Positions 35,184-59,291 are shown, numbered from the stretch's first letter. The stretch is DNA of 64,000 bases from Flaccisagitta enflata (GCA_965153355.1 OZ231126.1:28644001-28708000); one strand, 5' to 3'. Notes: generated by a model not told the origin, from the letters alone. Numbers and translations are program-made.

Positions 35184-35275
35184 CACTCAAAAAAATTTCC
35201 AAAAATACAATAAATAAATATCGTCTGTTGTATTTGAACGGACGTTATTGTATTTTAGATAATACAACGAATTGT
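35184..35275 (+). repeat. Left TIR of the giant element, followed by a TACAA/TTGTA-rich subterminal region to ~35560
   Basis: Reverse complement of 60003-60094 apart from a short mismatched block after the poly-A. Repeated AATTGTA(C/T)AG and AATACAATAATTGTA motifs follow. Confidence 0.9.
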
Positions 35276-36116: not shown

Positions 36117-36673
36117 CGCTGTGTTTCACATCAAATTACACAAAAGAAAACGTTGCCATTCGACTATAAATTGTCATAAATCAATTCTGAAAAGAAAATT
36201 TTGCAGAAAAATAGTTCCAATTTTTTATAGAAAAATTTTGTAGGGCTGGGCGGAAAATTTTGATTGCTAAGCCAATTTGAATTATAGTCAATTTTTAGTC
36301 CAATAATAAATAAATATTTAAATTGATTATTTCTAAACAATTTTATTTTTGTTTTTGTACTTCTTTTTTTTATTTGATAGTTTAGGTCATATAATTTGAC
36401 AAAAACGAATTAACAGAATTTTAGTAGCACTGATTCAAAGTTTCTCTGTAAACATCAAATAATGAGCATTTTTAACAAAACTTATTGTCTCCAAAATCTA
36501 AAGATTAATATGAATTGATCTAGAGAACAGAATTCTCAACTCAGCTCTATGAAATTTGGCGTCAAAAAATTGGAACAATTTTTCTGCATGAAACTTTTTT
36601 CAGAATTGATCTAACCTGTTTCAAAGTAAAATGGCAACGTTTTCTTTGGTGTAATTTGATGTGAAACACACTG
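36117..36673. mobile_element. Tc1/mariner-type MITE (557 bp) downstream of gene D
   Basis: TA-flanked; GTGTTTCACATCAAATTACAC..AAACGTTGCCATT is inverted at both ends. Confidence 0.8.
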
Positions 36674-36823
36674 TATGACTGGACGACTAACGCCAAGAAA
36701 ACAGAAATACAGTAAACAAACAAAACGATGTGAATATTACAATGTCATAACAATTTGTTGCATAACGGTGCATCATACGCTTTGCTTAACCATGACTGCC
36801 CGACTACTGACAACGAAACAAGT

Positions 36824-38126
36824 TCAATTTGCTGAGGCTGATGGTGGCGCCGGCGCCGGCGGAGACGGCGGAGGTGGCGGCGGCGACGATGGCGACGATG
36901 GTGGCGTCGTCGGTGAAGGCGCCACTTTGTCCTTGGCTTCCAGCGGAACCACGTAGTGTTCGGAATGTTTTTCTCTGTAGAACCAATCACATGAAAACTT
37001 CTTTACATTTCCGCTACTCAAAATATTAATCTCAAACAACTAAATTTTTACATACAGTAGTCCATTCCATCACCCACCCCCACACGCCTCCCCCACCAAC
37101 AACAAACACAAACATGACTTACATCCAGCATGAGCGGCAACCCTCCTTGGAACAGTCAACACAAAAGATCTCGATCTCTGCATAGTCATGGACGACGCAG
37201 GCCGGTTTGGCGTTCTTCAGCGTCTTAGCAATGATGTTCATCGTTGGAGAACGCACAAAACCCTCCAAGGGAAGCTCCAACCTGCCCATGAAAATAGCAT
37301 ATGTTATAAGTACAGTTGCGAGCATAACAAATATGAACCAACCAACCAACATACATACATACATACATACATACCTACTAAGGGACAGACCCTCTTATAG
37401 ACATGCGAGGACGCATCTAAAAAGAGACATATGTTGCTTTCAAGTTTTTTTTTTCGGCTAGTCTCAGTAGATAAAAACCTCATTTGCATATTGCCGTTTT
37501 TTTGATTAAGTTCGCCCAAACCTGCCTAATAAATAAGAAAAAAAGAGTTTCTCACCCAAATAAATATCGCCATTCTCATGACTACAGAAAAACCATATTA
37601 ACATTGTGAATAAAAAAGTATGAACAAATAAATTAGAAAACCATTCAATTTTAAGGCACGCTTTTGTTTTGTTGGAGGGGATGAACATACACAAAAAAAT
37701 CAAGTGAAATTTGGAATAACAAAACGTCGTCGTCCTCTTCTTCTTGGCAGAGGATGCTAACTGGCAGCTTTGAGCCTTTGACCACCATGTTGGTGTTGGC
37801 CCCCAGGAAGTTAAACCATATGACATTCCGGTTCATTTTCATAAGTGCAGTAGCAATCATAACAAATATCATCCCATTGGGAACAAAATACAACAGTTAA
37901 AGAATAGTTACAACATATGTACAAAGCATCGCTGTAACAGACATTACCTGCAGTGTGGGCAGGACGCGACGTCGTAGACTTCGAAAGCGGTGCCGATGCA
38001 GCCGTAGCAAAAGGGTTTGTGGCATTTCCGGCAAATGTGTGCGTCGGTTGGCAGAGCCAAACATATGAGGCACCGTACATCCAGGATGAGATTGTCTAGC
38101 ATTTCTCGAGGCATCATCAAAGACAT
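36824..38126 (-). CDS. Element gene D: 162-aa RING + B-box (TRIM-like) putative E3 ubiquitin ligase with Pro-rich tail
   Basis: Exons 38126-37948, 37281-37123 and 36974-36824 (phase-2 junctions, 489 nt). RING CLIC..CRKCHKPFCYGC..CPHCR has spacing like the TRIM37 N-terminus. B-box CVVH..FCVDC..GCRSCW|IEKHSEH is split across exons 2 and 3. Confidence 0.85.
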
Positions 38127-38485
38127 ATTTGGAATTTAGTTGTGCCTGTCTGTCAAAAAACAAATGAGTGGAATCTATCACAGCTTGAAGCTTTGATCGG
38201 ACTAAAAATCAGAAATGTATCACAAATGCAGTTTATTTTGATGACAATTTTCGCGATTACGGGAAATTTTCTGTTTTTAGCTTTCGCCCCGCCAAATGAA
38301 AATGACAAATGGGTACGAACGTAAAAGTACTATCGCCGTATACTACTATCTATATTACCACTAAACATCTGGAAGGAATAACCGAAAACGCTGGAGGACA
38401 AAAAACGCCAAAAACGAAAACAAAAAAATCGCTGGAACGCCACAGAAACCACGCCACAAGGTAACAACGCCACAACGGAAGAAAA

Positions 38486-39113
38486 TCAATCGGAATCGAC
38501 AGTGCCTATATCTGGCGATGGAGTAGAGGAGGATCGATCGCCCGTGACTAACGCTCGAGAGTACCTAATCCTGGTCCTCATTCTTTTTGAACCGACGCTC
38601 CAAAAGTCGGAAATCTCAGAGTCGGAGGAGTCCCCCGTCATTTCACCATCAGTGCTTGTCACCAATGTCGGGGAGGATGAGGATGCAGCTAAAAAAAGAG
38701 TTTTTGCAAAGTCACCCACTTTTGCCAGAGACTTTTTTGGCTACAAAATAATTGACAGTGCCATACTGTGCAAACTATATCTGCTTACATGTTCATACAC
38801 CTTGCAACAATATGGATATGTCATTTCTATTAAAGCTACAAAAGTCTCGGGCAAAAAATGGGTAGAATGACTAATGATTAATAATATGGTTTGGCTAAAG
38901 GATAAAAAGAATTTAAAATCTTGACCACTTCTTACCTACGACATTTAGTATGTCTGACAAGGTTTGTCGAACAATTTCCTCGATGTTCTCCTTTTCCTTT
39001 AATTTCTTTTTCTTACGTCTGATGGCAAAGAAAAGCCGCTCGCACGAGCGTTTTGTCTCATGTATGGAAGGGGAGGTCGACTCTGAAGACTCTGAGGCCG
39101 ACTCTGAAGACAT
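38486..39113 (-). CDS. Element gene C: ~142-aa Ser-rich protein with basic NLS-like RRKKKK, function unknown
   Basis: Exons 39113-38940 (donor GTAGGT) and 38740-38486 (acceptor ttttgTAG) join in phase 0. An acceptor-like tttcTAG lies 18 nt upstream of the ATG. No recognisable domain. Confidence 0.45.
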
Positions 39114-39339
39114 CTTATTTACAGGGGGAAACTAGAAACTAGCTAAACATGTTAAATAAGTTGAGAAAAAACATGAAATAGAACCATGAGAAATAAGTTT
39201 AGCATTTTGATGAATTGGATGCGAGCGCAGTAAGGCTGTCATGAGTGATGAGCTGCGGGAATTTTGGGGCAGTTTTGCACTTGATGCTCGGCCATGAGAC
39301 GCTTACTCATCAACATACTGCAGCTCAGCATTCATCACC

Positions 39340-42100
39340 CTAGTCGTCGTCAGTGGTTCGTACGTAAGCCACTGACAGGCCGCCTTTCTCGTCTTCTTCG
39401 TCAATAGCTTGGAGCCGATGGTAGTAACTTTCGGACCGCGGGTCGAGTAACCCCTTTTCTCTGCGGAACTCCATCGCCTCCCTAATGATTCTTTGACGTG
39501 ATTGTCGCATCAAGGCTTCCGTTTGGGACCGATGATGTTTGTTGACTGTCCTCAGTTTGTTGATGTATTCCAGGCGATGCTGGCGACGGCTTATGCGTAA
39601 TTCTGGACTGATTTGGAACGCGTAGCTGCAATACATGGACAAGTGTAATATTAGTCAAACTGTGTTAACAGTATAATATGAGCATTATGATGTAAATAGT
39701 AAAATCTCCATACCATTATATCTACCTAATGAGAAGCAACATAATCATATATTATCATATCGCATAATCATCAAAACAGTAACAAGAACAATAACAATCA
39801 ACACTACAATATTCACACTTACATTTCCCAAAAATTCCAGTACGCATCCAGCGTGACGCGGTAGCGGTCTTCATCTGTAAGGTCAATATGGTACATCCGT
39901 AGAAAGGACATGGCGTACGTGTAGAGGTTTCCTCTCACATACACGTCTCGCGTCCCAGTCGCATCGTCTGTTGGGGTTATCCTCCAGCGGATTTTCTTGT
40001 CGAAAGACACGCCGAGATCCTTAGAGCGAGTATGCGGATCCTTCCTCAACAACACCACCTTTGGATGCGTGGACAGTGTCGTTTCGTCATCGAGGACGTC
40101 GAACATGATCTGAAAGACGACAGAGCTGACTCAATACATCATTTGTTGTAAGTTAAAAACAATGATGAGAGTTTTTTAACGGGATAAAAATGAGATTATG
40201 CATCTATATGAACACTACACATTTATACATTTATTGTTTTATTCGTATACATTTTTTTTTTAAAACTTCATTACAATTTTTGTTTAATCTCAACGGCAAT
40301 TCTCACATGTATGAACACAACAAAGACATGTCAAATACCTGCACGGGGGGCACTGACAACATCTTCCGCAACCACGTTTCAACGTAATGACCGTGGTAAG
40401 GGTGCGGTCTTCCATTAGGGTCGTATTCGACCTTCGGGAAATCGTCCATTGCTTTTGGAAAGAGAAAGTGCTGCAATTCCGACATGCCCGACGCCGCTAT
40501 GTCGTAAACGTCGTTGGGCGTTTCTCCTTTGATCTGAATGATGCTGTGGTACTTGAAGATGTAGTTGATGAGTTCGTTCGTAAAGTCCACTTCGAACAAA
40601 AATGGCAAATATCCACGAGGATCCTAGTGGTGGGAAAGGGAGGTCAGAAATCCAAATAATTATCCAAATGACATCATCAAAATGACACTATCAAAATGAC
40701 ACTATCAAAATGACTCTGTTATATGTACATCCCAGTGTTAATCCTTACCACTACTGGGTTTTGGCCTAAGACGTTGACTGCACTGCTGAATAAAAGCATG
40801 AATGAACTTCTTTGGGCCCGATACTCCTTGGTGACGGGGCCCTCGTCCTTTGGCGCTTTTGGTCGCTTCTCCATCAATTTCATCAGGAGTTCCTTTTCTT
40901 TCGCAAAGGTTGTGTGCCACATCGTCACCTCGCCGGGAAACGCCAGGTCCAGACTCATTTTGATGAACTGAGGGCGTTATTACAACATATGAATTGTGTC
41001 AGTCAGTAATAAGTAAATTGTTTCAAGTTAACATGCAAAATGGACAAAACCAGCGCAACTTACCACTAGTGTGGACTCACAAGTCAACCACTGATAGGCC
41101 GCCACGAAGCGTGCATGACCGGGTGGTCTGTAGACGTAATTGTAGAAATTAGTCGGGCGATCCTTCGGCGCGTCTTCAATTCTCTTCCAGACTTCATTGA
41201 TTTGGTTTTCTGGGGGTTCCTCGCGGCCCTCCTTTTCAGCACTGTTCCTGACAGCCTTGGAGAAGCTTTGCTTCACGATCGCAAGGGGTTTGGCCGTTGG
41301 GACGGGCGTATCGATAGGGGCGTATTGCCTTTCCCGCGGTGCCGATGATTCATTTGGAGTCTCCATTGGCGTTATATCGCCAAGCACAACGCTGTAAAAA
41401 TAAAGAAATTTTCTTGGTTGGTTATACAATATGAAGAAAATGCCTTGTCGTTTTAGTACACAATCAAATGTCACAACTCACCGAGGAGCCACATCTTCCA
41501 TCGGATCCGTTGAGCATGACTGTGGATCCATTGCACCGGAATCCATTCCTGTAGTCGACGCCACTGAGGTTAAATTGCCAGGCCGGGCGGTGGAACTGCA
41601 AATGTGCAAAATACGAAGCAGTGAAATAAATGCAAAACATTTCTCTATAATATGTTTCACTGGACACAACAATTTTGCAATTTGTCCCAAAATACCTTGG
41701 AAGACGAACGGCACGTTTCCTACGGGACCGCGAGCCATCCACTAGGTTGCCTAACCGATCATTTTCGGCATCGTCAGGCGGGCTGGGTTCGTCAACGGTT
41801 TCGCCACCACGAGCGGCGTTGAAAATTGATCCCGTGGTACTCGCGACGCGACGCCCCGATCGCGGAATGGGTGGCGCACATCTGAATCAAGAATGTTATT
41901 GTTGTTGTGGTTGTTTTGGTTGTTGTTTTTCTTGTTGTTGATTTTCTTTTTCTTGTTCTTGTTTTTCTTGTTCTTCTTCTTCTTCTTCTTCTTCTTCTTG
42001 TTCTTCTTCTTCTTCTTCTTGTCTCTGTTGTTGGTGTTGGTGTTGTTGTTGTTGTTGTTGTTATTGTTGTTATTGTTGCATTGTTATTGTTATTGTTGTT

Positions 42101-42161
<61 letters not shown>

Positions 42162-43062
42162 TAAATTTTCTGTAGTGTATTGTAGTAGTTTACCCTCTTT
42201 TGTTTTTCGTCACGCCAATCGATTTGCTCCTATCTTTTTCAGCTTCAGCAGCGCGATTTGAATGGGGCCGAGGACGGCTTTTCATTTTGTTGCCGTCATC
42301 GCTGTCTCGTTGCTCTGCATCATCCGCCTTGACCAACCCGACCAACTCGTCCAACTGTGCGTCGTCGGTTTCTCTATTCAGTGCTTCGAATGTGGTCTGT
42401 GATTGGCTTGTGCGAACGGGAGTACAGTTTGGGGAAACCCCTCTGAAATAATACAATGAATATAATTTACGACGACCTACCAATTTTGTGAGTTATATGT
42501 ATACAATCAATGTGCGGTAGTTGGTAAGGATATTCAAAGATCACCTCACGCCGTGAGAGCCGCCAATCCTAGCTTCGTTGGACGTGTTCTTTGCGGTGGA
42601 TGATTCATTTGTGGCGGTTGAACCATTTGTGGCACTTGATGATTCGTTATTGTCGCCCACGGAGTCAGCGGTCGACAAGGGGGAGCGGATTGCTCCATAT
42701 ACGTTTTTGTCGCTGGCCCGGCTTGTGAGGTTTCCACCACACTATCAGGAAAAGTGATAGTCGAACATTATGTCAGTCTTCTAACATTATTATATGTTTC
42801 GGTTATTGATTGTAATGCATGACTATTAGGTTGGGTCCACCATGACGATTTTAGAAACACTCTTGCTCCAAGCACTTTTCATGTTCCTATCATATAGTTA
42901 GAGTCATATCTACTTGTAAAATCCATTATGACAAAATTTCGCCAGACCGTCATTGTTATTTGTACAGTGAATTTTAAGGAAAAAACCCCTTTTTTTTTCC
43001 TCAGAAAAAAAAATGTTTTCTGGGTGCATGGCCACTTCGTAATTGCGCGCGCTTATTGTGCT

Positions 43063-43131
<69 letters not shown>

Positions 43132-46053
43132 TCTTTATTGGACTAAGCGAATATCAGCCTGCACAGTTGAGCTTGAGGCCGGGTGGGTAGGCCGGAGGCC
43201 TATCTAGCAGATTTGAGGCCTTGAGGGCTGCTTTGACGTCTTGGAGGGCCAAACTTAGGCCTGAGTGCTGAATTGAGGCCCCAAAAGCAAGACGGGGGGG
43301 GGGGGTGAAAGAACAGACGTAGGAAATTCAACCCTGTGTCCTTCTGGACATCGGCCCTTTTGACCGCCACCCAAAAAGACGGACAGTCAGACAGAAACAA
43401 GACCAGGGGCAGTGTTTAAAGTCACTAGAGTATTTGGGCAGGAGCAGTGAGGCCAAAGACCGTACACTGAAACAGGTCGCCTGAAAGTAATCTGTGGTCA
43501 GTGATACTATGCTTTGCATGATTGTGAATTGGAATGCGAGTAGGCAGGGCAGCGGCCCCAAAAGTGTAGAAGTCCTGTAGAACACAGAGGGACTTTCGTT
43601 CTCCCTCCAGATTTTAGGCCTGAGAGGGCAGAAAAGAAGTTTAATAGTCACAAAAGCGTTAGATGGTCAGCGGTGCCTGTGCCCTGCTTAAGAAGGTTGT
43701 GGTTGAAGTTGAGGGGGGAGCAGGGCAGCGGCCCCCAAGGGGTCGATGACCTATGCTTTCATACATATGGGGAAATTTCTCCTTCTCCTTCTCCTCCTCC
43801 TCCTCACCCCCCTCCCCCCAGCCTCAAGGCCCATATCTCAGCCAGGAGGCCCATATCCCAGCCTCGAGGCCCAAATCCCAGTCTTGAGGCCCAAATCCCT
43901 AGAGACTGGAATTTGGGCCTTAGGGTTGGGATTTGGGCCTTAAGGGCGGGATTTGGGCCTCAAGACTGAGATTTGGGCCTCGAGGCTGGGAAATGGGCCT
44001 CCAGGCTGAGATATGGGCCTGGAGGCTGCGGGGAGGGGGGGTACGAAGAAGGAGGAGGAGAAGGAGAAAATTCCCCATATGTGTGAAAGCATAGGTCATC
44101 AACCTCTTCGGGGCCGCTGCCCAAAAGGGCTTATCATGGGCCTCAGGCTGAGAAGTCATAGATTAGGTTTGAAAGGCAGATTTCAGGCCTGAGAGGGCAG
44201 ATTGCAGTCCTGAGAGGGCGGATATCAGGCCAGAAAGGGTAGATTTCAGGCGAGAGAGGGCCGATATGAGGCCTGGGAGGGCAAATTATGGGCCTGAAAG
44301 GGCAGATTCCAGGTGTGACAGGGCATATTTAAGGTCTGAGAGGCTTGATGGGAGGGGGGAAATACTTAAGCTGCCTTATGTTGTACAGGACCTCGTCCCC
44401 TTTGGGACTGCTGCCCAGAAAGTGAATAGTCGCAAAAGCGTCAGATGGTCATCAGCGGTACCCGTGCCCTGCCTAAGTAAGTTGTGATTTGAGTTGAAGG
44501 AAGATGCAGGACAGTAGCCCCCGATGATGCATGCTTTCACACATGAGTAAATTTCTCCTTCTTCAAGCGGTTGGGATTTCGGCCACTTTTGGAATATGAT
44601 TTAGGAATTTAGGTCTAAGAGTTGGGATTAGGGCCTTGGGGCTGGGATTTTAGCCTTGAGGCCAGGGGAGGGGGGTGGACGACGAAAAGGAGCGGGACAA
44701 ATTTCCTCATGTGTGAAAGCATTGGTCATTAGAATGGGCACAAGTTGGGAATTTGAATGAAACATAATTTCCAAGCACTTTTCTTGTTCCTTTTGCATGT
44801 TAAGAGCCCAATCTCTTTGGAAAATCGATTTGGGCTTGATCTAGACACTCCGTCACTAATGCTGTAGTTGTATAGATTTGATTGCTGGAGTCAGGAGAAA
44901 AATTTCTTCCATAGTAATGCTATGCAACTACAGCATTGATGACGGAGTGCCTAGATCATGTCCAAATCGATTTTCCAAAGAGATTTGGCACTTAATATGC
45001 AAATGGAACATGAAAAGTGCTTGGAAATAATAATTCATTCAATTGCCCAAATTGAGCCCACTCTATTGGTCATCTGCACCCTTGGGTTTACCATCGACGA
45101 AGAGGAACAGAAGCAAATTGACTCAATGATCAATTCGATGATGCTATTTCTTTAGATCAAACTAAAAACCCTATTCCCGCTATTTTATGTTGGAAGGTTC
45201 GTCAAAGAAAGAGTGAAGTTGCCAAAAAGCTGGTTGATGCGCCAGTGCCCTCCATCACAGCATGGGAAAATTTACATTCATAAGCGGAAGTCCGACAGTA
45301 CGTGTCTATGCCCCTTATGATTGATGTTCCCTCAATCAAACATATACAGTAGATCTCGTCTAGACTTGAGATAACGGGGGCGAGCATTGTAGGAAAACAA
45401 ATAAAGCTAGGAGAGTGATATTTCAAACATAGACTAATAATGGGATGCTTTATTGCCCATGATAGCTGGTTGCCATGGAAACACATTTCTAAGTATTCTC
45501 GCTAAAGTATCAATATTTTGAGAGATTTTTTTAGGGAACATTGCTTAAAATAAAATTTGCTACAACTTTCCCACAGTATGTTCTGTAAAAATGTCGCTCG
45601 TTTAGCGGTTGCTAAGGGTTGTCACACATGGAAACGCTCTCTAGCAACGGCCAAACGAGCGACATTCTTACAGAACATACTGTAGGAAAATTGTAGCAAA
45701 TTTTATTTTAAGCAATGTTCCCTAAAAAAATTTCTCAAAATATTGATACTTTAGCGAGAATACATGGAAATGTGTTTCCATGGCAACCAGCTATCATGGG
45801 GAATTAAGTATCCTTTGATTAGTCTATGATCTAAATATCGCTCCCCTGCCTTCATTCGTCTTTCCACAATGCTTGCCCCCGTTATCTCAAGTCTAGATGA
45901 GATCTACTGTATAGTAATTCGTACAAATCAGCGCGAAGGTTGGCATCAAATCAGCGTCCATCAAGGCAGGAGATATACTATTAGCAAGGCAGGAATATTC
46001 AGAGAAGTAAAGCAAGCAAAGCCAAAGGGAAAAATGTAAACACATACAAGAGG

Positions 46054-46093
<40 letters not shown>

Positions 46094-46172
46094 AAACAAC
46101 AACAACAACAATAACAACAACAATAACAACAACGATAACAACAACAATAACAACAACGACAACAACAACGAT

Positions 46173-46218
<46 letters not shown>

Positions 46219-46294
46219 CGGCCATGGCAGCAAAAGTAGAAACACAGACAGTTGTAACAACACAAAAGACAACGGCAATAACAACATCAACATC

Positions 46295-46334
<40 letters not shown>

Positions 46335-49300
46335 TCCACAGTCGCCTATTGAACGACAAGCAAAAGTTCTAGAACAAAAGATTCCTGTTATCAACAATGA
46401 GGTATTCTCCCCAGGAATAATTGTTCATGTTTCAATTTTGAAAGCTGTAGTTATTGTTTAAGTAAACGGATTTCGTGTTTACTAAGTTGAAAAAAGATTG
46501 AATCCCACGATCATTAGAGTATTCTCAATCTAAAGTTGTAGGTTCAGTAAAGCATTTGGTGATGGAAGGAAGAAAAGTGAAAAAAGGTATTTTTTGCTTC
46601 AAAGCTGCAATTTTTTAACCCAATGACGGTCTGCAAAGATCATGTTGGAATTGATTTTGCGAGTAGACTGGGCTCTAATTATGCATGTAGAACATGAAAA
46701 TCACTTGGAGTAAGAGATATTTTGAAATGGCCAAAATGAGCCCAGCCTAATGACTATGTATGCTTACTCATCATCCATGGAGTCTGCATCATCGCTGACG
46801 ATTTCTTTAGAGATGGCGGTTCCCTCGTCATTAACGGCCAGCCCCCCATGTACGGCCATAAATCTCCGGTACGTCTTCTTGTAAGTTGAGTCATTGTAGA
46901 ATTTCTTTCTCAAAGAGGCGCGATCTTCACTGAAAAACGAAATGGGAAATTATTTTTAAAAATGGCAGTATGACGTAATAGTGCATCGCACAACAACAAC
47001 TACGATTACTACTATAACAACAACAATACCAACAACATCAACAACCAAAACAACAACAACAACAAGATGAGCTTACAGGTGCTCGGCTTCAGCCTTTATC
47101 TTCCTTTCCTCCTGCTCATTGCCGCCTTTCACTTTGACTGCCATCCAATTTGCGTAATGTTTTCGTTGGTTCTCCTTTATGTCTCTGGTGAGATTGGCCA
47201 CTTCTTCAATGTCGTGTTTGTTCAACTTTTGTCTGGCTTTGACCTCGGCCAGTCTCAGTTTCATGGCCGTCTGGAGCTTGGTGTAATTGGCTCCGTTTTT
47301 GCCCAGTCTGTCCATAATGAAATTGGTTTATGCTTGTATAATCATTGCACTGGGTTCGCAAATAATGATTGCGTCGAAACTTAATTCATGCCTTCAAAAC
47401 TTACCGGTCCCGAATTAGGCACGAAATCGGAATTTCTGCCATTTTGTTAGGCCATTGGAACACCGGGAACCCTGTCCTTCTCAACGCATGCTGGTTGACG
47501 CCGAAGAAGAACTCCCAGTAGGTGGGCTGAGTAGGCGCAAAATGACAATCCTTGTGGAACAAAGCGTCCTGAAGTAGAAATAGTAGATAACAAAATGGAT
47601 GAAACATGTGGGGATGCATGTGGGGAAAGCGCTGTACAACTCACAATAACACCACTACACCACTACGCGCCATCACTGACCTGGATGTTATGGAACAGGC
47701 GTTTGCAAGCGGCCAGGATGAATTCTTTCTCCGGCTTTTTCACGTTGTCCATGCCATGCTGAGATATAAATGGGAAATGTGGTTATATGATATCACCAAT
47801 TAGCAACGATATCACCAATTAGCAATGGAAACGCAAATTATTAAAACCATTCTCTAAGCGTGGAACTCACAGCTTTCGCGATTATCTCCAGCGCGACATC
47901 CAGCCCTTCGTCTTCTTCAATAAATTTCGTCAGACCACCTGATTTGGCCAAGAGCTCGAACTGTTCCTTACAAGTTAGCTCTCCTAATAGAAACAGGAAA
48001 TACAACAGATGTAATAAGTACCAATACAACGGTTTTAATTTGGAAGTCAGTAAGCAAGATAGATTTACAGTTGAGCTTCACTAGAGCGCATTTAACTATG
48101 AAATGTCTCATTAACAATAACTTGCATGCCTTTTAAGAGGTCATGCCTTATTGGCGGGTGCGCGAAAGTGAAGCTCAACTGTACCTGAGGACGCAGCTTG
48201 CAGTTGTTGAGGTACAAACGTCGCCGGGTTCCCATCTCCTTCGAGGTGCAGATCGCCCAGTGTGTTAAAGTGGTAAACGTCCCGGTCTTTGTCGTAGTAA
48301 CCCACGTTGCCACCGGAGGGACACCACAACTGGTCGTAGGGCAGAGCGGGAGGTTCTGGGTTTCCGTCAGGCCCAGGAAGCATTTCTGGCGGCTGCAGCC
48401 ACATTCGATGAGGGTTTTCAGGGTCTACTGCCGATCTATAGGCTGCTGGCGGCAACAGACTGGGATCTGTTTGGAGGGAATGAGGTAATTATTCAATTAC
48501 TCATTGTGTGTGATGGAAGATTGTTTGTCGAAATGAGACATGATTACTAGACGAGTTTAAATATAATTATTAAAGCAATTTCGAAGAATTGAGTACAAAC
48601 AATAAACTACTTTGGCCCAGTTTACAGAGTAGAAAATTAGCATCATTGGCACTAAAACAAAATAATAACTAACGTACCTCTTGTACAGGGTTTTTCACGC
48701 CAAAACGCCGATTACAAAACGACGTTTCTCAGCCCCTAGACATGATAATTGATTTCTGAAAAATGGTCTAAATAGTTCTTGAGCTCCGATTTTGTTATCT
48801 AAAATTGTGATGGTTTGATTTCTAGTGGTTTACCCGTCATAGATGAGTAAATAAATCCTCAGAATTTGGACAAGTGCCATTAAGTTATTACTTCGAGAAA
48901 GCAAAGCTTCGTCCTTGGGCCATATCAAAGCAATAATTCAGTCTAAATTTCAAATTGATTTAAATTAGTTACCTTTGGTAGAATATGTGAGCTGAAAAAA
49001 TACCATGCAGTTGCATAGTATTCCTTATTTGAAATTAAACTGTTCAAAGACGTTTTTCCCAGTGTTGCAGCTTCACATTGTGTTCTTCCTCCTTATGGTC
49101 CTTATATTGTTCCACCAGTAAGCTGGTTGGTCAGTCCGTTAGTTGGTAAAGCCTACTGTTTGTACTCAAACATCATTTTGGTAATCGTCAGCATTTTGAG
49201 CGTCTTCACCTTCGCCAGCTTGTGGAAGTTGATGGTTAGGGCGCTCCTCCATGATCTCATGGGGCCCATTTTCACCACCGAGTATCATCAACTTTGGAGA

Positions 49301-50297
49301 AGCACTGCTTCGAAATGAATGAGCTACAGACCTCGGGTTGGTCGCATTTTAAAGAGCAAAGAGAGATCTTTAAAATGGGACTAATCTGAGGTCTATAACT
49401 TTATTTGTTTAGAAGCAGTGGTCCTTTAAAGTTGATGCTTGTTTCACGGAGCAGAGTATTAATTTTTTTGAAATGGAAAAATTGAGTTCTTTAAAAAAAA
49501 ACTACTAATGGGTGAACGTCATGGATTCTAACCATAAACAAAGTCAACTGATAAAATCGGAGCTCACGAGTTGTACAAACCTTTTTTCAGAATTTAATTC
49601 TCATATCTAGCAGCTGTAAAATTTCGTTTTGTAATCGGCGTTTTGGCGTGAAAAACCCTGTAGCAAGGAAGCTATTCTTTGCCTCGGGATTCTTTTCCAA
49701 CATTATCTTCAAAGCAGTTGCGCTCATCCCATTGTTGGTTGCGATCTTTGCGATGCGGCGTTTCTTCATTTCCTGTTGACACTGATTGAAGATCCCTTGT
49801 GCTTCCGCGTCACCGATGCCTTCATCTTGGCCGCCGCCGATGTCAACTCCACCGTCGCCGATGTCGCCAACTTGGCCCCTTTCTCCTCCATCTTCCTCAC
49901 TCATGACTTCATCCTCAACCCTATCTTCGTCCTCCACCTCCTCCTGGACATTGTCACTGGTTCCAACGTCTGCACGCGACCGCTTAGTGCGGGTGAAGGC
50001 AGGCACATCTGCACCGTCGTCATCCTCTGGATGTGATGTTGGTCGTTTTCGTTGACGACGAGTTGTCCTAACGGCCTTACCACGTGACGGCGCCTCCTCC
50101 TCCATCTCCTCCTCCTCGCCGCTCTCTTCGTCCTGATGAGGATCACAGTTTGATCGACGTGATGTTTTCGAGGGTGGTTGATAGTCGTCGTCTTCCTCTT
50201 GAAGAAGTCTATCGCGATGGCGTTTGTTTCCACGCTGGCTGGCTCCGTATTTGGCGTTGGGACATTCTTTGTAAAAATTCGAACGTTTCGACGACAT
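39340..50297 (-). CDS. Element gene B: 16-exon ~1272-aa accessory protein (likely TnpA/ORF2 equivalent), exon 1 interrupted by a MITE in this copy
   Basis: Exons 50297-49661 plus 48683-48678 (MITE removed), 48466-48185, 47983-47871, 47758-47681, 47568-47405, 47307-47077, 46929-46768, 42741-42550, 42442-42194, 41881-41696, 41595-41482, 41391-41064, 40967-40749, 40623-40339, 40109-39823 and 39625-39340. All 15 introns are GT-AG with matching phases and there is no internal stop (3819 nt). The C-terminal AMSFLRMYHID...YWNFWEIYAFQI recalls the tail of ORF2/SAMD3-like proteins of animal EnSpm elements (from memory, not searched). Confidence 0.75.
44730..45065. mobile_element. Palindromic hAT-like MITE (336 bp)
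   Basis: 8-bp TSD TTGGTCAT on both sides; TAGAATGGGC ... GCCCACTCTA termini; arms complementary almost to the centre. Confidence 0.85.
45347..45909. mobile_element. Palindromic Tc1/mariner-type MITE (563 bp)
   Basis: TA|CAGTAGATCTCGTCTAGACTTGAGATAACGGGGGC ... GCCCCCGTTATCTCAAGTCTAGATGAGATCTACTG|TA; near-complete foldback. Confidence 0.85.
48686..49660. mobile_element. Tc1/mariner-type non-autonomous element (975 bp) inserted in exon 1 of gene B
   Basis: TA|CAGGGTTTTTCACGCCAAAACGCCGATTACAAAACG ... CGTTTTGTAATCGGCGTTTTGGCGTGAAAAACCCTG|TA. TA TSD; removing it restores the exon and donor GTACGT. Confidence 0.9.
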
Positions 50298-50311
50298 GTT
50301 TTAAGTTTATC

Positions 50312-52955
50312 CTAAGTCAAGTCCAAGTTCCTTACACTTATCACGTTTAATCTGTTTGATTCGTTGCATACGTGGTAATCTTGGACAAGAACGAGAGAAG
50401 GGACTAATAATTGCCGCTGAACACTTGAAGTTGATTCTCTTACTTTAAATATGCCCAATTCTGTAATTGGGAGAGCCGTTAACTTTTTGGAAAGGAGGAT
50501 TATGTCTGAGTCACTTTGGGCAATGCCTAGGATTCTGAAAAAACGCCCATCTGGCTCCCCATCTATATTGGGCAGGCCATAAACCGAGTTGAGGTGAAGC
50601 ATGTAACCGTTGTGCTCAACGGTTTTGAGGCACTCAGCCGCTCTATAGCCTTGATAAAAAGTTAAAGCTTCATGTGGTAAATCTTCTTCATTTGTTAAAC
50701 GACTAACCTTCCTTGGTTCAATGATTGCTTGACTGCGCGCATGTAGTTTCAAGTCAATTCTTCGGAGAATAGTGTATAGAACGTTCTTTGTGCAACGAGA
50801 GTTTCCAAAAGCTCTCTTGACGAACTGGTGGAATTGTTCGCATAATGAAGAACTCTGTAGGGACAAAGGGCCTGCCAACCGAATTGCTCTTGGGTAATGG
50901 CACAGATTATGCTCTTTATATTTTATTTTGGGATCATACTGTCCATCTGCGGTTCTGGTGAGACTCATCCTCAAAGTCAATGTAGTTACTATCGTTTCTT
51001 CCATTTCTTGTAAAGTCTCGTTTGTGTGGTTTAGAGTGAGAAGAAGTCGACTTAGATACAAGACTTGTAAATAGAAGACCCAAACAGGGTCAGCCGTGTT
51101 TCCAATGACCGGATAGAGTACAGTGCTGAACAGAAGAATAAATGTGCGCACGTGTGCGACTTTATTACATATACGGACTGTTTTCTTCGCCATGTCAAAC
51201 TTGAAATAAGGACGATTTTTTGAATCATGGCCACGGAATTTGAAACGTTTCCACAAACTTTTCATTGAGGAAGCAGAGATCCATTGTAAATCGAAAACGA
51301 TTCTATTAGTGATGATTGTCATCCAAGTTACTGCGCAGCCAAGGAAGAAGTCGTGGTGGAGATCTAATGAAAAGGTAGTCTTGTTCATGGGGAACCATGG
51401 AATGCGATGTAAAGCAGGCACATGAGTAAAGCCATACGGAAGCATTAAGTCATTTGCTTCTGCTGCAATGACATCAATATATTCTTCAGACGTACGCGGT
51501 GCAGCTGGTGCCATATCTTGCACAGAGTTAGGAGTTACTAAATCCGCCATACGGAAATGGCAATATCTACAGGATTTCCCACTTGTCCATGATCGTGTTA
51601 TCCCACAGAGTTGGTTTTGGCTCAGGTTATCGCCGATAACCATAAAGAATCTGACTTGATAGTGGTCACCGTTGTATGTAATGCCATTTGAGACAACATC
51701 TCTCAGTCGAGATACAATTGCCTCAGTTATGACCTTCAATCCCACTTCCCCCACATCTTTTGTGTAGAGTAGGCATAAAGGGAAAACTTGTTCCAACTTG
51801 CGTTGGTTTGGTCCTTCAATTAAGATAACTATATAAAAATTATATAACTTATAATTGGCGTTACGGGCATACAACGCCTGCAACGGTAAGACCTCATCAC
51901 AGTACAAGCCCAGAGGAATTACAGGTTCACCAGAGTGGATGGCAATGTCTCTAAATATTTCAGAATTTTTAATCGAATTGAACTGGCCGGCCGTGATGGG
52001 TTTCTGATGAAATTCTTTCAATCGATTGCAATTGTCTTTACTTTTCAACCATAATGTCAACATTTCGTCGATTTTGTAAAAATGCACTTGGACATTTTCG
52101 TCCAAAAGTATATCGTTTCTTATGGGAAGAGTTACACTTGCACGATAATTATTTTGTAATTGTTTCTGTTGTCTTCCACGACCATAACTGGTTCTGATTT
52201 GGTTCATGCGTTTTTTCTGTTGTTGTGATAAGTTACATTGCAGGGCATTGAGAATACTGATTGTTTGTGATACAACGTAGGAAATAAGACATTCCGTGGC
52301 AGCGTATGTATTCGTCATTTGGTGTACAGTTTCCTCCATTATTGTAATTACATGTTCTGGAATGATACCACCACCGCATCCACCACCACCGCCACCACCA
52401 CCACCACCACCACCACCATCACCACCACCACCACCACCACCATCACCACCACCACCAACACCACCACTTGAATTATTCTCACCAACATCCTCCCAATGAT
52501 GAAGAACAAAAACATCTCCCTCGTCATTGTCAACAACTTCATCATCCTCACTATCTTCTGAATCGGATTCCAATATATCATCGACGTCCTCCTCCCTCTC
52601 CTGCTCCTCTTTCCATAAAATATCACCTCGATCCCTGTGAAAGTCGAGATGTGGGACGCTTGTTGCGCAACGTTTATTTGTGAGAGCCTCATAGGGGCAT
52701 ATTTGGTGGCTTGGCTCAACAAATTGGTAGTGTAGTTTGAGTGCGTTATAGTTTTGTTGGTCAGTGTAAAAAGGCAGAGATTCCTGACACACAGGGCACT
52801 TGTATATGCGTCTATAGTGTTGGTCGACGTGGGTTTCAGCAGATACAAAGTCTGTCGTTGTTGTCCTCTTGTGGCAAAGGGCGCATACGGGCCTTCTTAC
52901 TTTGTTTTGACTTTTGAATAACAGTTTGTCAATGAGAGTCTGTCGTAGAGTCATT
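50312..52955 (-). CDS. EnSpm/CMC-type DDE transposase, main exon (~880 aa), with two N-terminal C2H2-like fingers
   Basis: Uninterrupted ORF. Motifs typical of animal EnSpm-like transposases: LGLYCDE, FFMVIGDNL..NQLCG....SGKSCRYC, DLHHDFFLG, KEHNLCHYP..I...GPL.....CEQFHQFVK. N-terminal CALCH..H..H and CPVC..H motifs and a poly-Gly linker. Acceptor ttttgctgaacAG lies directly before 52955, with ATG at 52954. Confidence 0.9.
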
Positions 52956-53093
52956 CTGTTCAGCAAAATTTGAAAAAAATTTGATGATACTTGTAAAAGC
53001 TAGTCTATTCTATTCTATTTCATTCTATTCTATCATATTTTATTTCACCCAGGCACGAGGTCAGTTCTAAAACAATTATTATATCACATTGTC

Positions 53094-53618
53094 ACATTGA
53101 CATCCACTCTACTGAACCTGTAATTGCAGTGGGCCTAATTGCCATATACAACTTGGACCAAATGTTCCTTTTGCCTCAACTTTACCCAAAAACATGCAGG
53201 GGAATCAGGGTCATTGCCGCCAATCTCTCGGCAAATAAAGTATCGGTGGACCAGTGGGAAATCCCAACATTCTTATATGTATAGCAAATGGCTTCATTCA
53301 TGTGCCTGCTTTCCAGGGCATTTCAAATTTCAACATGAACACGACTACCTTTTCATTGGATCTCAACCACAACTTCTTCCTTGTCTGTAAAGTATGTTGG
53401 ATGACTACCATTAACCCATGATTCAAATCGTCCTTATTTCCAGTTTTACATGTGGAAGAGAACAGTACGTATTTGCAATAAAGTCGCACACATGCGCACA
53501 TTTATTGTACTGTTCAGCACTTTACTTCATCCCAAAAAAGATACTGTCCGAATATTAATCATACATACATGATACAGACAGAGCAATTCGGCTGGCAGGC
53601 CCTTTGTCCCTACAAAGT
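53094..53618 (+). pseudogene. Inverted, internally deleted patchwork copy of the adjacent transposase CDS
   Basis: Plus-strand pieces translate to IDIHSTEPVIAVGL, VIAANLSANK, WTSGKS, GFIHVPAFQGISNFNMNTTTFSLDLNHNFFL, HDS-NRPYFQFYMWKRTVRICNKVAHMRTFIVLFSTLLHP and RAIRLAGPLSLQS. They are collinear with transposase 51948 to 50851. The last block differs at only 2 of 40 nt. Confidence 0.9.
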
Positions 53619-53792
53619 TTTTCATTTGGCGAATAATTTCATTTTACAGTTCTCAATGCACAAAGAACAATCAAGCAAGCAAGCAAGCAAGCAATCATTG
53701 ACTATGTTTTATGTAAAAACTGCTAATTGGTTAACAATAACCAACAGTGAATGAGAACAGGAATAAACAAGAGATGATGAAAAGTATACTAC

Positions 53793-54100
53793 CTATATCT
53801 TTTAAATCTGTAAGTTGTCTGTACTTGGTACTTATATCTGTTATCCAAACGTCGAATGATGAAATTGACGGCAGCAGCTACCGAAAAAAAATTAAAAAGT
53901 CGCGGAATAAACAACGACAATAGCCATTAACGGAGTGAAATCAGACAATTAATAAATGCAATCTAACCTCTAAAACCCGGATGTTCCCAAAGGCGATGTA
54001 ACGCTATTCCAACGCCACCATACGCCCCAATCAAAAAAAGCTCACGGAAGGAAAGTTCAACCACCATCTGGTGGCCACGGAAATTAAGGGACATGATCAT
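53793..54100 (-). CDS. Two small exons (54100-53968, 53877-53793): probable 5' exons of the transposase (giving 953 aa), or a separate 73-aa ORF
   Basis: Acceptor tttCAG lies 8 nt before ATG 54100. Translation MIMSLNFRGHQMVVELSFRELFLIGAYGGVGIALHRLWEHPGFR|AAAVNFIIRRLDNRYKYQVQTTYRFKRY with a phase-1 junction. Donor ag|GTAGTA (phase 2) matches the phase-2 acceptor at 52955; if unspliced it ends at TAG 53789-53791. Confidence 0.5.
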
Positions 54101-54160
54101 TGTTAAGTCTGAAAGCTAAAGCATAATAATAAGAATGCTAATAAGACGAACACCATATGT

Positions 54161-57100
54161 TTACAACGGAATGGGTGGCGGTTTTAACGAGCTAATTTGT
54201 GTGGTATTGGGAGGCGCCAATGAAACCGAGGAGTTGGACGCCATCACAGATGCTTGGGACGCGTTTTCAAAAAAAATCATTAAGTCCTGAGCGTCTTCTT
54301 CATATTTGGTCGCCGCCGATTTCTTCCCACCTCTTCCCCCCCTCGCCGACTTCCCTCCCCGCTTCCTTCCCCCCTCCCCCACCGCTGATTTCGCCGACGA
54401 TTTATTCGGAGTCGCAGTGGTCCCATGGGGTTTAGCAGTCGAAGTCGCCTTGTTTGGTGTTCTGGGTTTGGGAGGCCGACCCGCCAACTTCTTCTTTGCT
54501 TGTTTTGTGTCCTTTCCCGCATCACCCTCCTCATCGTCGTCATCCTCCACCACCTTAGCGGACAATCTTTTTTCTCGGGTAGAAAGACGAAACGATGCGC
54601 GTCTTTCATGGTCGTCGGCGAACCGGTATCCCGCGTCTGATTCCACCTCGTCGTCCATATCGTCTCCAACGCTGGGACGGCAAGAAGAAACGCTGGAAGT
54701 GCGAGAAGAGACGCTGGAAGAGCGAGAAGAACCGTTGGAACGCCGGGTCAACAACGTTGAGCCATCGTCGTCAACGAGAGGAATTTCCACCATGTCTGTA
54801 CCTAACGACAATGGTGAAACATTGATTAATACATTTTGTTTTTGTTTTGGTATTACATGGTGGACACAATAGTTTGTAGTCGTGCAAAATCTAATTAATG
54901 TTTTTATTTATCTTATCCGCGACTGAGGGAAGTTTGGGCAATACAATTTTTATATTGGGCACGACAACCATTCCATCGCACGCGTCATGTTCAATACAAC
55001 CATTGTATTGCGCAAGTCGTGCTGATTTAGACGATAGAATTGCACGAGTCGTGCTAAATACAACCATTGTATTGCGCAAGTCTTTCTGAGTAAAACGATA
55101 GTATTGCACGAGTGAATCAGCACGTCCATAACATGAACGTCTGATTAATAATTCTAACAATATAATTAGTAATTAATAATACTTAATAATTCATAATTCA
55201 TAATTCATAGTTCATAATTCATAATTCATAATTCATTATATTATCTTTATTGATACTGTCCTTGTTAGAATTATAAATTTTTAATGATTAATTATTACTT
55301 CTTAATTATCAATTATTAATTATTAATTATTAAATATTAATTATTAATATTAATTCTAAAATTTTAATTAGTAATTATTAATTATAAGTTGTTAATTGAT
55401 TATTAATTACTAAATTATCAATCATTAATTATTAGTTATTAATTATAAATTATTAATTATCAATTCTTAATTCTTTATTGTTGATTGATTAATTAATTAA
55501 TTATTGATTATGAATTATTAATTAATCAATAAACAACTAATAATTAAGAATTGATAATTAATAAGTAATAATTATTAATAAAAAATTAATAATTCTAACA
55601 ATGACAGTATCAATAATGATAATATTAATACTAGTAATAATAATACTTTTATTTACATGAGTAATGAGAGGCAAATGAGCACACCTGCTGCGTTCACAGG
55701 ATTTGTGAAATCCGGAAGCGGAGAGCAGGATCGCGAATTCTGAGGACGCGGAGGCGTAAGCGCAGGAGGAGTAGGCGCAGCAGACGTTGAAAGCGCAGGA
55801 AGCATAGGGTTAGGCGTAGGCGCAGGAGGTGTAGAAGGCGCATTATGTGGCGGCTGCGGAGTAAGAGATTCTGGTGGCTGAGTTTCAGTCGGGGAAGCCG
55901 TAGATGGCGGTGAGGAAGCGCGCGATGAATTGCGTGATGAGTTCAAGCTTAACAGCAGATTTGCGCTTGAGACATCTTGATTCGACAGATGCAACCTCGC
56001 CGGCCTCGACACCGCCTCACCCAACGGGACCGTAATTTGTAAGCCGTGATGATGTTCGGCGAAATGGGTTTGTAAAGCGGCGGCGTTGTCAAAATCGATG
56101 AGACATTTGTCACAACGGGCCTTTGACTGCCAATTTCCATTTTCGTCCAGTGCATTGGGGCCCATATTCGCCACGTCATGCGTAAGGGTCTCCACCTCTC
56201 TGTCATTGTCCTCGTCATTTCCTACGGTCGAGTTGTTTCCAGCGTTGCTACCACCGGAGGCACCCGCATCACCACCCGAATTTGACGCGGTAGAGGAGTC
56301 GTCGTCATTTCCTACGGGCGAGGTGGTTGCAGCGTTGCTACCACCCGAAGCACCCGAAGCACGAGGCGAAGTCGATGCGGTAGAGGAGTTTGGATCTATG
56401 TCGTCCGGGACTGATCTTAAAGAGTCATTGTCCTCGACGAAATTTTTTACGGGCGAGTTGTTTGCAGCGTTGGTACCACCGGAAGCATCGGAAGCGCCAT
56501 CTGAATTTGATGCGGTAGAGGTGTTTTGATCCATGGCACTGGGGACGTGGGTCCCAGCCGAAGTCGAAGTCGACGCGGTGGAGGTGTTTGGCTGAGTGAC
56601 GCTCGGGACGTTGCCACCACCTGTAGTTCCACCCGAAGTAGACGCAATAGAACCCGTCGTTGATAATGCTTGTCTCTGCACCGAGTCCACAATGAGGCGA
56701 GCTGTAGAACAGTGAGAAACATTTATATAAGAAATAACGAGTACAATTTTGTTTTTGTTAAAAACCGAGTTTGTAAGAACACCAAGGCTTTGAATCGCCC
56801 AAAAATTATGAACATCTTAAGAACATACAAAGGCTTAAAATCTTTAACCAAATTTGTGGGTAATGGTGATATTTAAAGAATCCTATGAAAACAGATGACT
56901 TGCATTATAATTTAGGTTAATATTACATATGTTGTACTAACATTGATCTAATATGCATATTGTCATTTTATGATGACTGGTCTTGTGTAACTTATTTGAT
57001 TAGAAAGACTATGAGTTTCTATTTACAATACAATGATAACTGCAACGTTTATATTGTGGAGTAATAAACGTAAATCTTTGTTTCATGGAAAACTTCACAA

Positions 57101-59291
57101 CATGCTCATGTATTTCATCTAGCCAACGGTTGAAAACTGCATAGTGATGATTAAAGTAATGAAAAAAAGAATTAACTCTGGAATTCGTCGCTTTCTACCT
57201 TTTCGCAATTTCGACATATGTGCGGAGGTGGAAGCCGGTGTGGGCTTTATTTTTCCAGTTAAACAATGTATATCACTGGGAATTTGTGTGGCATTGGGAG
57301 GCGCCAATGAAACCGAGGAGTTGGACTATTCAATAAAAATAAATTTGTTTGGAGTTAATAATAGTAATTTAAAAGGTTACTTATACTGAATAAAGCATAT
57401 AGAATAAAGAACGTGCTAAGAACGTTTAAAACTTCATTTGCTCTAAAACATGATAACATAAAGCCTTAGAAAAAAAAAACATTGTTATAATACTCCAAAA
57501 ATAAAGCGACATTTAACGCATATGGTGTCGTTGGAATCTCCCCATCTGGATTGACAAACTAACCTAGGACTGCTTTCTGACGTTCATGAGGCGGCATGGA
57601 TTTCACTGTGCCATCTTTTTCGTGATAGATGACGCTGGTTGAGGGCACACGCAACTCGCGTTGTTTTCGGGTGACGGACTCGGGGGTGTCATTCCGATTG
57701 TCGGACAGGCCGAAGAGAACGTTGTTTGTCACGAGAAACGCGTCGAAATCCTCAAGCCACAATTTCTGTTAAGGGCAAAGGGCAAATACAAACACATTAA
57801 AGAAAAAAGATATTTTAGATGTTTGTGTTTGTAAAAAGAATCCCTTTAACTAAACCCGGGCTAACAGAGAAAGACAAATACACTTTCAGTTTCTAAATGA
57901 CCTAGTTCATAAGAACATCGTGGCAAATAGAGAGCCAGACTGACAAACAGGCAGACAGAGACACAGACACAGACAAACACCGAAACGGAGAAACGGGTCA
58001 AACACAGTCACGTACACCCTCATTTACATATACTTGCGCGAATCAAAACAAGGATTTACGTGGACCCACCTGACAACTTGCGATATAGTGACCAATTAAC
58101 CGCGCCGGTTTCCCAGCAGGAAGAATCACGAACAAGGCCGGTTCATTATGGGGGAGGTATCCAGCCGCCCACATTAAAACGTAGCCGTTAAACATGAAGT
58201 GAGATTGAACGCTGGGATCAGGTATCGGAAAAGTGGCAAGGTCTGTGGGAAAAAGAGAAATAAAACATGTAAAATAAGTTTTATTTTACTAGTAGCTATA
58301 TTTCTTGAATCGATTGTAAACTTGATTGTTCCCCAATTAGGAAGAACATGTCTTTCAACATGTCTTCCTAGGAACAACCTTAAAATAGAACATGATGAAC
58401 ATGTTTTCTTCCGGCAATGGTCACTTCAAAAAATATAGGAATTAACGAATGACGACTTAAAAGTATTTTCTTCGTCATTCTTAACTACTATTCAGCTGAA
58501 AATGGTTTAACAATTACAACAAACTAATAGTTTTTCCTATGATTCCATTTTCTCCCTTTCACAATCAATTAAAAAAAAATTATATTGACTCATGGACAAA
58601 GGGCTTTGATTAGTCACCGCAACATTTTCCTTTGATTTACACTGCGATATGCAAATTCTTTTACTACGTTTTTAAAACGGTATAAGTAATTGCCTTGACC
58701 TTTACAAACGGGTTGAACTCTTGAAAAGGCACTTTTTATTGCTAAGAAGAAACAGAAACCGGTTTAATGAGACCAAATTATATTAGCTAAAGTTTTAAAA
58801 GTGTTACACATCGAATTATGCATTGTTAATAAACAAAGTTTCGAGTAATATGGATGGCCAACTGTTATCTTATGATGTCCGTTTGCCGATTACATCTCGA
58901 TTACATCATCCCAAAAGCTATTGAGTGGCTTCAAGGCCAAAAATGAGTTCTTATATAAGACAAAGTATAAGCCTTGTAGCACTCACCGTAGTCTTTGTCA
59001 AATGGCTCCATGGTTTGGTAGACGACAACTTTGTGACGGCTACGTGAATCTTTCTCGACGGCTTCCCGACGGCTTCGCGTTGAGAAGATTTGTTGCAGCT
59101 TCGCGACTTTTTGCTTTATGTGAACAGCGCAGTTTTTAAAAAGCGACGTAAAATCTTTCGTAATCTGTCGATAAAAAAGAGGTTATTACATTTGGGCAGC
59201 GTTTTCCCCGGGCGCGTATAAAAAAAAAAGCGTATCCAATTTTTTTTTTTCGTACGTCGATGTTCAGCCTCTTCCTGATCCTCTTCCTCAT
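54161..59291 (-). CDS. Element gene A: ~748-aa low-complexity protein with one C2H2 zinc finger and an AT-hook-like/RGG basic region
   Basis: Frame-consistent GT-AG exons 59291-59256 (uncertain), 59164-58987, 58242-58070, 57765-57564, 56701-55685 and 54801-54161. Contains CDKCLIDFDNAAALQTHFAEHH, LAGRPPKPR, GRKRGGKSARGGRGG, repeated SSTASNS/ASGGSNA peptides and a Pro-rich tract. The start codon is uncertain; an alternative is accATGG (MEPFDKDY) near 59011. Confidence 0.65.
55150..55650. repeat. Extremely AT-rich, partly palindromic intron segment in gene A
   Basis: TTATTGATACTGTC(C/A)TTGTTAGAATTAT at ~55247 is inverted at ~55589-55616. An inner inverted pair TAATTATCAATTCTTAAT / ATTAAGAATTGATAATTA spans 55454-55560. 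Confidence 0.7.

Follow-up and report, generated by a model that had tools for sequence, protein, structure and literature searches.

A typical eukaryotic DNA transposon has one or two genes. In maize, En/Spm yields TnpA and TnpD by alternative splicing. Members of the CMC (CACTA-Mirage-Chapaev)/EnSpm group have terminal inverted repeats (TIRs) that start with CAC(T) and end in the complement, and a target-site duplication (TSD) of 2-3 bp. Accessory genes of plant Spm elements are described as expressed through alternative splicing or separate promoters (bioRxiv 10.64898/2026.08.24.746577). Enlarged En/Spm elements of the red alga Chondrus crispus are described as 16-20 kb long with 4-5 open reading frames (ORFs) (PMC6431247). 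In a chaetognath other than the one studied here, nearly half of the genes are reported to be trans-spliced and 18% to lie in operons, with gaps <250 bp (PMC12460157); RPS14-PCNA is reported as an operon, again in another chaetognath (PMC2481426). Termination-reinitiation at UAAUG is described for the SART1 retrotransposon and caliciviruses, where reinitiation after long ORFs is recognised by a stop and a start within 20 nt of each other and out of frame (PMC10275272). Here we analyse a multi-gene EnSpm transposon in a stretch of 64,000 nucleotides (nt) from Flaccisagitta enflata (GCA_965153355.1 OZ231126.1:28644001-28708000), called the window below; positions are counted from its first letter, and features lie on the minus strand unless stated otherwise.

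The element occupies 35184-60094 and represents a family termed F1; the whole operon-like gene cluster lies inside it. F1 has six or seven co-oriented genes arranged head-to-tail, and 6-9 are found across the clade. Four sister families are present in the same genome (F1b, F2, F3 and F4; transposases 44-71% identical). Each is represented by one to three copies; F1b is decayed 3' of B and the F4 sequence does not reach the element ends. Gene order is common to all families: A, S, the transposase gene T, B, C and then two or three RING/B-box genes (D and E in F1).

The arrangement that we favour, at about even odds, is an operon in which A, S and C, and probably T and D/E, receive the leader, combined with translational coupling of T and B. 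Gene order, gaps, acceptor-like sites and host leader genes are observed directly, and we infer co-transcription, leader addition and reinitiation from sequence features. One promoter near 59460-59170 would fire a long polycistronic pre-mRNA. The host spliced leader would be joined at outron acceptor 59164 for gene A, and also at acceptors lying a few bases upstream of S and C and probably of T and the RING/B-box genes, giving separate capped mRNAs like those of host operons. Gene B would stay on the transposase mRNA; ribosomes would terminate at the T stop and restart at the abutting ATG, which would tie B output to transposase output. The AG at 50311, within the T stop codon, would not be a splice site.

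Splice sites were scored with two models trained on these elements, one for acceptors (39 coding introns) and one for donors (41 donors). A good acceptor was defined as one scoring at least 2.35 (the lower quartile of true acceptors), at most 60 nt before an ATG and with no ATG between. Such sites precede 17 of 24 downstream starts in the five families (S 3/5, T 4/4, C 4/5, D/E 6/10), against background rates of 9.3% for 1845 other ATGs and 16% for 543 ATGs in AT-rich context; as a set, the acceptor-like sites exceed chance. The set of 24 uses the window values for F1 and excludes a second F1 copy and the ATG-less T of F1b. The original prediction had quoted four AGs, before S, B, C and D, and these are retained in all other copies holding the region (8/8 or 9/9; nine compared).

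The A-S gap (54101..54160) is U-rich and lacks AATAAA. The TAA of A ends at 54161, 60 nt from the ATG at 54100, with an AG at 54110-54109; these positions are exactly those predicted. Acceptor 54108 scores 4.6 and is confirmed as unpaired, since the gap cannot fit an intron. The gap measures 51-117 nt in four of five families; in F2 it is 460 nt and has no good acceptor. The shortest of 27 element introns is 88 nt. The distances from the A stop to the S acceptor (52 nt in F1, 54 in F1b, 36 in F3) and from the B stop to the C acceptor (55 nt in F2, 62 in F4) fall below this and are therefore too short for an intron. In F4, the A-S gap has no GT far enough upstream of the acceptor.

The ATG at 54100 opens gene S (53834..54100), which has two exons (54100-53968 and 53877-53834), 58 codons and a hydrophobic stretch; the transposase ATG is at 52954. 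A transposase start at 54100 was rejected, as S has its own stop in F1b, F2, F3, F4 and 6/6 other F1 copies read (two of the nine others were missed by the anchor and one lacks the region); this stop is missing from the window copy. In the S-T interval (52956..53792), a strong acceptor (6.5; AG 52957-52956) lies one base before the transposase ATG, and a weak donor (0.7) lies at 53792. A donor-like site ends S exon 2 in 5/5 families (0.5-5.9), and the T acceptor may serve both cis- and trans-splicing.

The T-B junction differs from the others. The T TAG ends at 50312 and the B ATG is at 50297, so that the T-B gap (50298..50311), a candidate site of translational coupling, is 14 nt as predicted. 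The gap is +14 in F1, +4 in F1b, +1 in F3 and -1 in F2 and F4, where stop and start overlap as TAATG. TAATG is found at 9/10 F2 loci (the tenth is +2) and in 2/2 F4 copies, and +1 at 7/9 F3 loci, the other two being frameshifted. The range of -1 to +14 nt in 5/5 families compares with 51-1253 nt for the 18 other gaps (median 292), p = 4.5e-4, a value computed over families that are not independent. Stop and start lie within ~20 nt and out of frame in 5/5 families. The AG of the stop codon had been proposed as an acceptor. It scores -4.5, whereas the weakest of the 39 true acceptors reaches -3.0, and sister families have no usable AG there. Tiny gaps in all five families and an AG that makes a poor acceptor argue for translational coupling rather than a splice junction. 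Fusion of T and B by readthrough or a fixed frameshift was rejected; the two are never in frame, and offsets vary among families. Of 80 distant metagenome EnSpm loci, the 46 informative ones all lack a 150-codon ORF at the transposase stop; ORFs of 72-76 codons occur there in two distant loci.

At the 5' end, a putative single promoter and outron span 59165..59460 and end in acceptor AG 59166-59165. Acceptor 59164, which is unpaired, scores 8.4. An outron-type acceptor is found 134-156 nt before the A ATG in 3/3 families tested (F1 8.4, F2 9.9, F3 5.4). The original prediction also offered an En/Spm-like shared leader exon at 59300-59400; the best donor between TIR and first acceptor in F1 scores -1.3, lower than 40/41 true donors, so this proposal is not supported. 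The best 5' donors elsewhere score 1.7 in F2 and 3.1 in F3, at 290 and 650 nt upstream of the outron acceptor. The 5' region is thus predicted to be an outron and not a shared leader exon. Two 5' motifs occur in 4/4 putative promoter regions and in none of 11 long intergenic gaps.

The host has the trans-splicing machinery. A degenerate pattern built from the leaders in Table 3 of PMC2481426 was used to search the host genome, and an exact form-3 chaetognath leader was found, in keeping with a chaetognath host. The 19-nt 3' core of the leader has 187 exact matches (control 0), many of them in ~730-bp arrays, and a further 84 core matches have a different next base. When 30 leader loci were cut out, nine were leader genes with a GTGAGT donor and 21 had the leader joined to unrelated sequence, as expected of retrocopies of trans-spliced RNAs. 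No leader genes were found near 5S ribosomal DNA (rDNA); the 5S rDNA repeat (G000:C4, ~75.9 Mb and ~87.9 Mb) is a 5.3-kb unit with one 5S gene and >30 tRNA genes of many types.

The host RPS14 and PCNA genes (named from their translations) are adjacent, with a 360-nt gap that lacks AATAAA and is within the range of gaps in the element. A second PCNA paralog lies 778 nt downstream of an RPSA-like gene, again named from its translation. Of the dispersed leader-tagged insertions, 16/80 (L156-L235, e.g. L159, L165, L197, L207, L229) enter a hammerhead-like core within 10 nt. The pattern used is one we take to be the minimal hammerhead core, and its shuffle rate is 0.0006; Rfam gave no hammerhead family match for these cores. 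The insertions suggest that ribozyme-bearing retroelement RNAs of the host are trans-spliced.

The proposal of spliced-leader trans-splicing thus stands in part. It agrees with the host leader arrays, the A-S junction, the B-C junction of two sister families and the outron acceptor before A, which the original prediction had not included; it does not extend to T-B, the lead example of that prediction. The unpaired acceptors fare similarly. The AGs at 39133-39132, 18 nt before the C ATG (39113), and at 38151-38150, 23 nt before the D ATG (38126), are placed exactly as predicted. Acceptor 54108 is unpaired, as no intron fits; 38149 cannot be called unpaired, and 39131 scores only 0.2.

Several observations weigh against an operon with leader addition. 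Gene starts were chosen by eye and homology. The window gaps before C and D are long enough for an intron. The B-C gap (39114..39339) is 226 nt in F1, with weak acceptors at 39131 and nearby and weak donor-like sites (1.6 and -0.4); it is 65 nt in F2 and 72 nt in F4, and is short in two of four families. The C-D gap (38127..38485) is 359 nt long and contains one AATAAA; its acceptor 38149 scores 7.7, and a donor-like site (2.9) lies upstream within the gap. Of the 18 gaps other than T-B, nine exceed 250 nt. The acceptor model was built on a small set and gives two host PCNA control genes only 0.4-2.3; a low score is therefore compatible with a real site.

The RNA data are uninformative. A raw-read RNA run over 47100-60100 gave only seven reads, all in repeats. 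In three plankton metatranscriptome contig sets covering the same interval, introns are evenly covered and unspliced; no splice joint and no leader-like loose end was seen in this interval, outside which C and D lie. None of 112 leader-tagged genomic loci matched a gene start when compared with all retrieved element copies, a comparison of little power. These loci comprise lists of 32 and 80, with a few shared between them, drawn from 271 pattern matches.

Other points weigh against coupling at T-B. In F4, an acceptor 23 nt before B scores 6.1. F1 and F1b have moderate acceptors (1.5-3.2) ~82 nt before B, with one upstream ATG. No UGGGA motif like that of the termination upstream ribosomal binding site (TURBS) was found in the last 120 nt of T in 6/6 copies. 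With 15 introns following it, the T stop should expose the transcript to nonsense-mediated decay if B is not translated.

The strongest competitor, which we consider unlikely, is that the element is partly monocistronic: A-S and T-B alone would share transcripts, and T, C and the RING/B-box genes would have internal promoters and leader-receiving outrons. In front of C, D and E, gaps of 225-1253 nt are common. The observed/expected CpG ratio is 1.2 in long gaps, 1.41 in the 5' promoter region and 0.77 in introns. The long gaps also carry motifs of their own, TGTGATA in 6/11 and GCGTT in 6/11, compared with 0/28 and 3/28 introns; internal promoters before T, C and D/E are therefore possible, a further point against a single promoter. 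Both the 5' and the gap motifs were picked after the sequences had been viewed, and the gaps are partly homologous.

A palindrome with a CCAAT core (TTGGTTA-N-AACCAA; window 53744-53727) lies in the S-T interval of 4/5 families, 39-87 nt downstream of the S exon 2 donor, and is absent from 28 introns and 11 gaps; it is possibly a binding site, a hairpin or an internal promoter element. Between F1 and F3 the E cassette was transferred whole, and plant Spm genes are described as sometimes having independent transcription starts by cap analysis of gene expression (bioRxiv 10.64898/2026.08.24.746577). Internal promoters are hard to place in B-C gaps of just 65 (F2) and 72 nt (F4), the two 5' motifs are missing from 11/11 gaps, and a host gap of operon type also reaches 360 nt.

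Somewhat less probable is that every cistron including B is trans-spliced, B receiving its leader at the stop-codon AG or at an acceptor inside the T end. The host owns the machinery, the acceptor model under-scores host control sites, and in a chaetognath operon a poly(A) site is described 3 bases from the next acceptor (PMC2481426). The F4 site at -23 and the F1 and F1b sites at about -82 are candidate acceptors for B; their positions differ per family, the window AG scores -4.5, and a good acceptor before B is present in one of five families (F4). F2 and F3 have no AG scoring at least 1.0 within 530 nt of the B ATG. Trans-splicing also gives no reason for T-B gaps of at most 14 nt in 5/5 families while all other gaps are at least 51 nt.

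Alternative cis-splicing of the En/Spm type is improbable. Here varied acceptors would be joined either to one shared 5' exon or to the donor of S exon 2, and an antisense block might favour skipping of T. The donor-like site of S exon 2, present in 5/5 families, can pair with the T acceptor, and an S-T mRNA is plausible; one Arabidopsis Spm gene is described as yielding both TPase and TnpA by alternative splicing (bioRxiv 10.64898/2026.08.24.746577). Such splicing lacks a leader-exon donor upstream of 59164 in F1 (best -1.3) and near the outron acceptor in F2 and F3, as well as a conserved acceptor for B. By reading of the sequences, no conserved frame results when the last donor of the upstream gene is joined to the acceptor of S or C.

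The antisense block is an inverted copy of transposase-core pieces (53288..53641, plus strand) that matches the transposase of the same element at ~85% identity. The S-T interval contains such a block in 5/5 families (350-940 nt aligned, 75-90% identical, reaching 95-98% in parts of F4 and F1b), and it is complementary to the middle and end of T in all five, a pairing that could assist skipping. Its mismatches show no G-U excess (101 G-U and 81 A-C in six copies), which speaks against that role. Each block matches its own family best and is therefore renewed or homogenised within each lineage. Self-control through a hairpin or small interfering RNAs is possible.

Finally, it is very improbable that U-rich gaps and tight packing under a size limit produced the acceptor-like sites incidentally, with genes transcribed singly from promoters in upstream genes: the threshold is passed by chance at 16% of ATGs in AT-rich context and missed by 7/24 starts, but the rate at downstream starts is 71% against 9-16%, the sites are kept across families with transposases 44-71% identical, and tolerance of kilobases of introns and insertions implies weak size pressure.

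An operon with leader addition and T-B coupling stays our preferred account of the F1 element. A wider statement is tentative and more doubtful than this account: that the clade of giant EnSpm elements forms a true eukaryotic operon, in which one promoter would serve 6-9 genes, leader addition would release most cistrons, reinitiation would operate at T-B and a continually refreshed antisense block in the upstream intron would regulate the precursor. On that wider reading, the operon layout would have allowed a DNA transposon to acquire cargo (RING/B-box, dUTPase) with no need for further promoters.

The F1 element (35184..60094) is 24,911 bp long in the window and 20.5-22.3 kb in other full-length copies. 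Its termini, TSD and catalytic signature indicate membership of CMC/EnSpm. The imperfect 5' TIR (59904..60094) is ~190 bp long and pairs with the imperfect 3' TIR (35184..35370); four subterminal repeats (59536..59834, no strand assigned) have ~71-nt spacing. CACTC...GAGTG termini are present in eight F1 copies, one F2 copy and one F3 copy. A 2-bp TSD, TA in the window, was found in 10/10 full-length copies of three families (seven by script, three by eye). Ten copies with transposase identity of 97-100% were found in a search of the same genome, and the nine other F1 copies align across most of the element at about 88-98%; the element is young.

Gene T (50312..52954) is a single exon of 880 amino acids (aa) with a DDE domain and the CxxC and HxxxH motifs; DDE with C(2)C and H(3-4)H is the CMC/EnSpm transposase signature. 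It has 1823 relatives at E <= 0.001. In a 40-sequence alignment with the numbering of a 662-aa query, D135, D224, E488, C244/C247 and H464/H468 are invariant. The window transposase has no Pfam match, and 4/30 homologs have sub-threshold matches to Transposase_21, Plavaka or DUF4218.

Gene A (54161..59011) encodes 685 aa in five exons (59011-58987, 58242-58070, 57765-57564, 56701-55685 and 54801-54161). The end of its last exon (54248-54200) is duplicated at 57325-57199, in an upstream A intron and behind an acceptor-like site. This block was rejected as an exon of A, since it breaks the frame and duplicates the end of A.

Gene B (39340..50297) has 16 exons and encodes 1296 aa. It is broken in the window and reads without an internal stop in an intact copy (G000:C5:64.14-64.15 Mb). 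Full-length spliced B has no match in the protein database, and no similarity between B and TnpA was detected. ESM Atlas look-alikes of a B exon are AMP-binding clusters with only 108-116/256 features in common and were not accepted. A B gene ending at 49587 is an artefact of an insertion. Gene C (38486..39113) has two exons and 126 aa. Gene D (36824..38126) has three exons and 162 aa with RING plus B-box; its Pfam matches to both domains fall below the curated cut-offs.

The window copy is damaged: gene B is split, one B intron carries an insertion, gene E is replaced and the S stop is lost. A 974-bp insertion resembling a miniature inverted-repeat transposable element (MITE), with TIRs and a TA duplication, splits B exon 1 (48686..49658). 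It is private to the window copy and absent from the nine other copies; the RNA runs over 47100-60100 also show the empty-site joint. A 3.9-kb insertion of host repeats in a gene B intron (42827..46749) is also private to this copy. At 36126..36769, other copies hold the second RING/B-box gene. No strand is assigned to these three features. The private insertions contain fold-back MITE-like repeats at 45343-45913, 44727-45068 and 36115-36675, with arms of 272, 149 and 170 nt.

F1 (C5 copy) and F3 (C4 copy) share a near-identical RING/B-box cassette (83-100% aa identity over pieces), unlike their transposases, which are only 56% identical. The E cassette appears to have been exchanged between the two families as a unit. 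An F3 ORF resembles dUTPase by eye, and a remnant is present in F1.

If the favoured account is true, a mobile element exploits the trans-splicing of its host to express many genes as one operon. A single genome holding five sister families, in which cassettes were independently gained, lost and swapped, would offer a natural test of whether trans-splicing lowers the cost of gene capture. T-B would also be a further example, here from a spliced nuclear transcript, of termination-reinitiation following a long ORF. A literature search found no DNA transposon with operon-type trans-splicing in titles and abstract openings, a search that did not cover most subscription journals or Repbase Reports.

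Compared with known systems, the element shares with animal EnSpm the CAC..GTG termini, the 2-bp TSD, subterminal repeats and a DDE transposase of ~800-900 aa with CxxC and HxxxH. It differs in having 6-9 co-oriented genes, most with introns, and a long ORF abutting the transposase stop, which is lacking in 46/46 informative distant loci; its transposase is only 22-28% identical to relatives outside the clade. Like the Chondrus crispus En/Spm elements as described (PMC6431247), it is large with several extra ORFs; it is larger, resides in an animal and carries RING/B-box cargo.

As in maize En/Spm with its TnpA-TnpD and in Arabidopsis Spm (bioRxiv 10.64898/2026.08.24.746577), a single element holds a transposase and, after it, a large accessory gene with many exons, but here a shared leader donor is absent and B lacks a conserved acceptor. 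The T-B junction resembles those reported for SART1 and caliciviruses (PMC10275272) in that a long ORF is followed by a stop and start that overlap or are no more than 20 nt apart and are out of frame; it differs in belonging to a spliced transcript of a nuclear DNA transposon, in which no TURBS-like motif was found.

With chaetognath operons (PMC2481426, PMC12460157) the element shares the leader type, same-strand genes separated by short gaps and an acceptor ahead of the downstream gene, and 9/18 gaps other than T-B fit the 250-nt definition of PMC12460157. The operons described there are RNA-supported and consist of host housekeeping genes, whereas the unit here is a mobile element. At some of its junctions, the element would work like a host operon.

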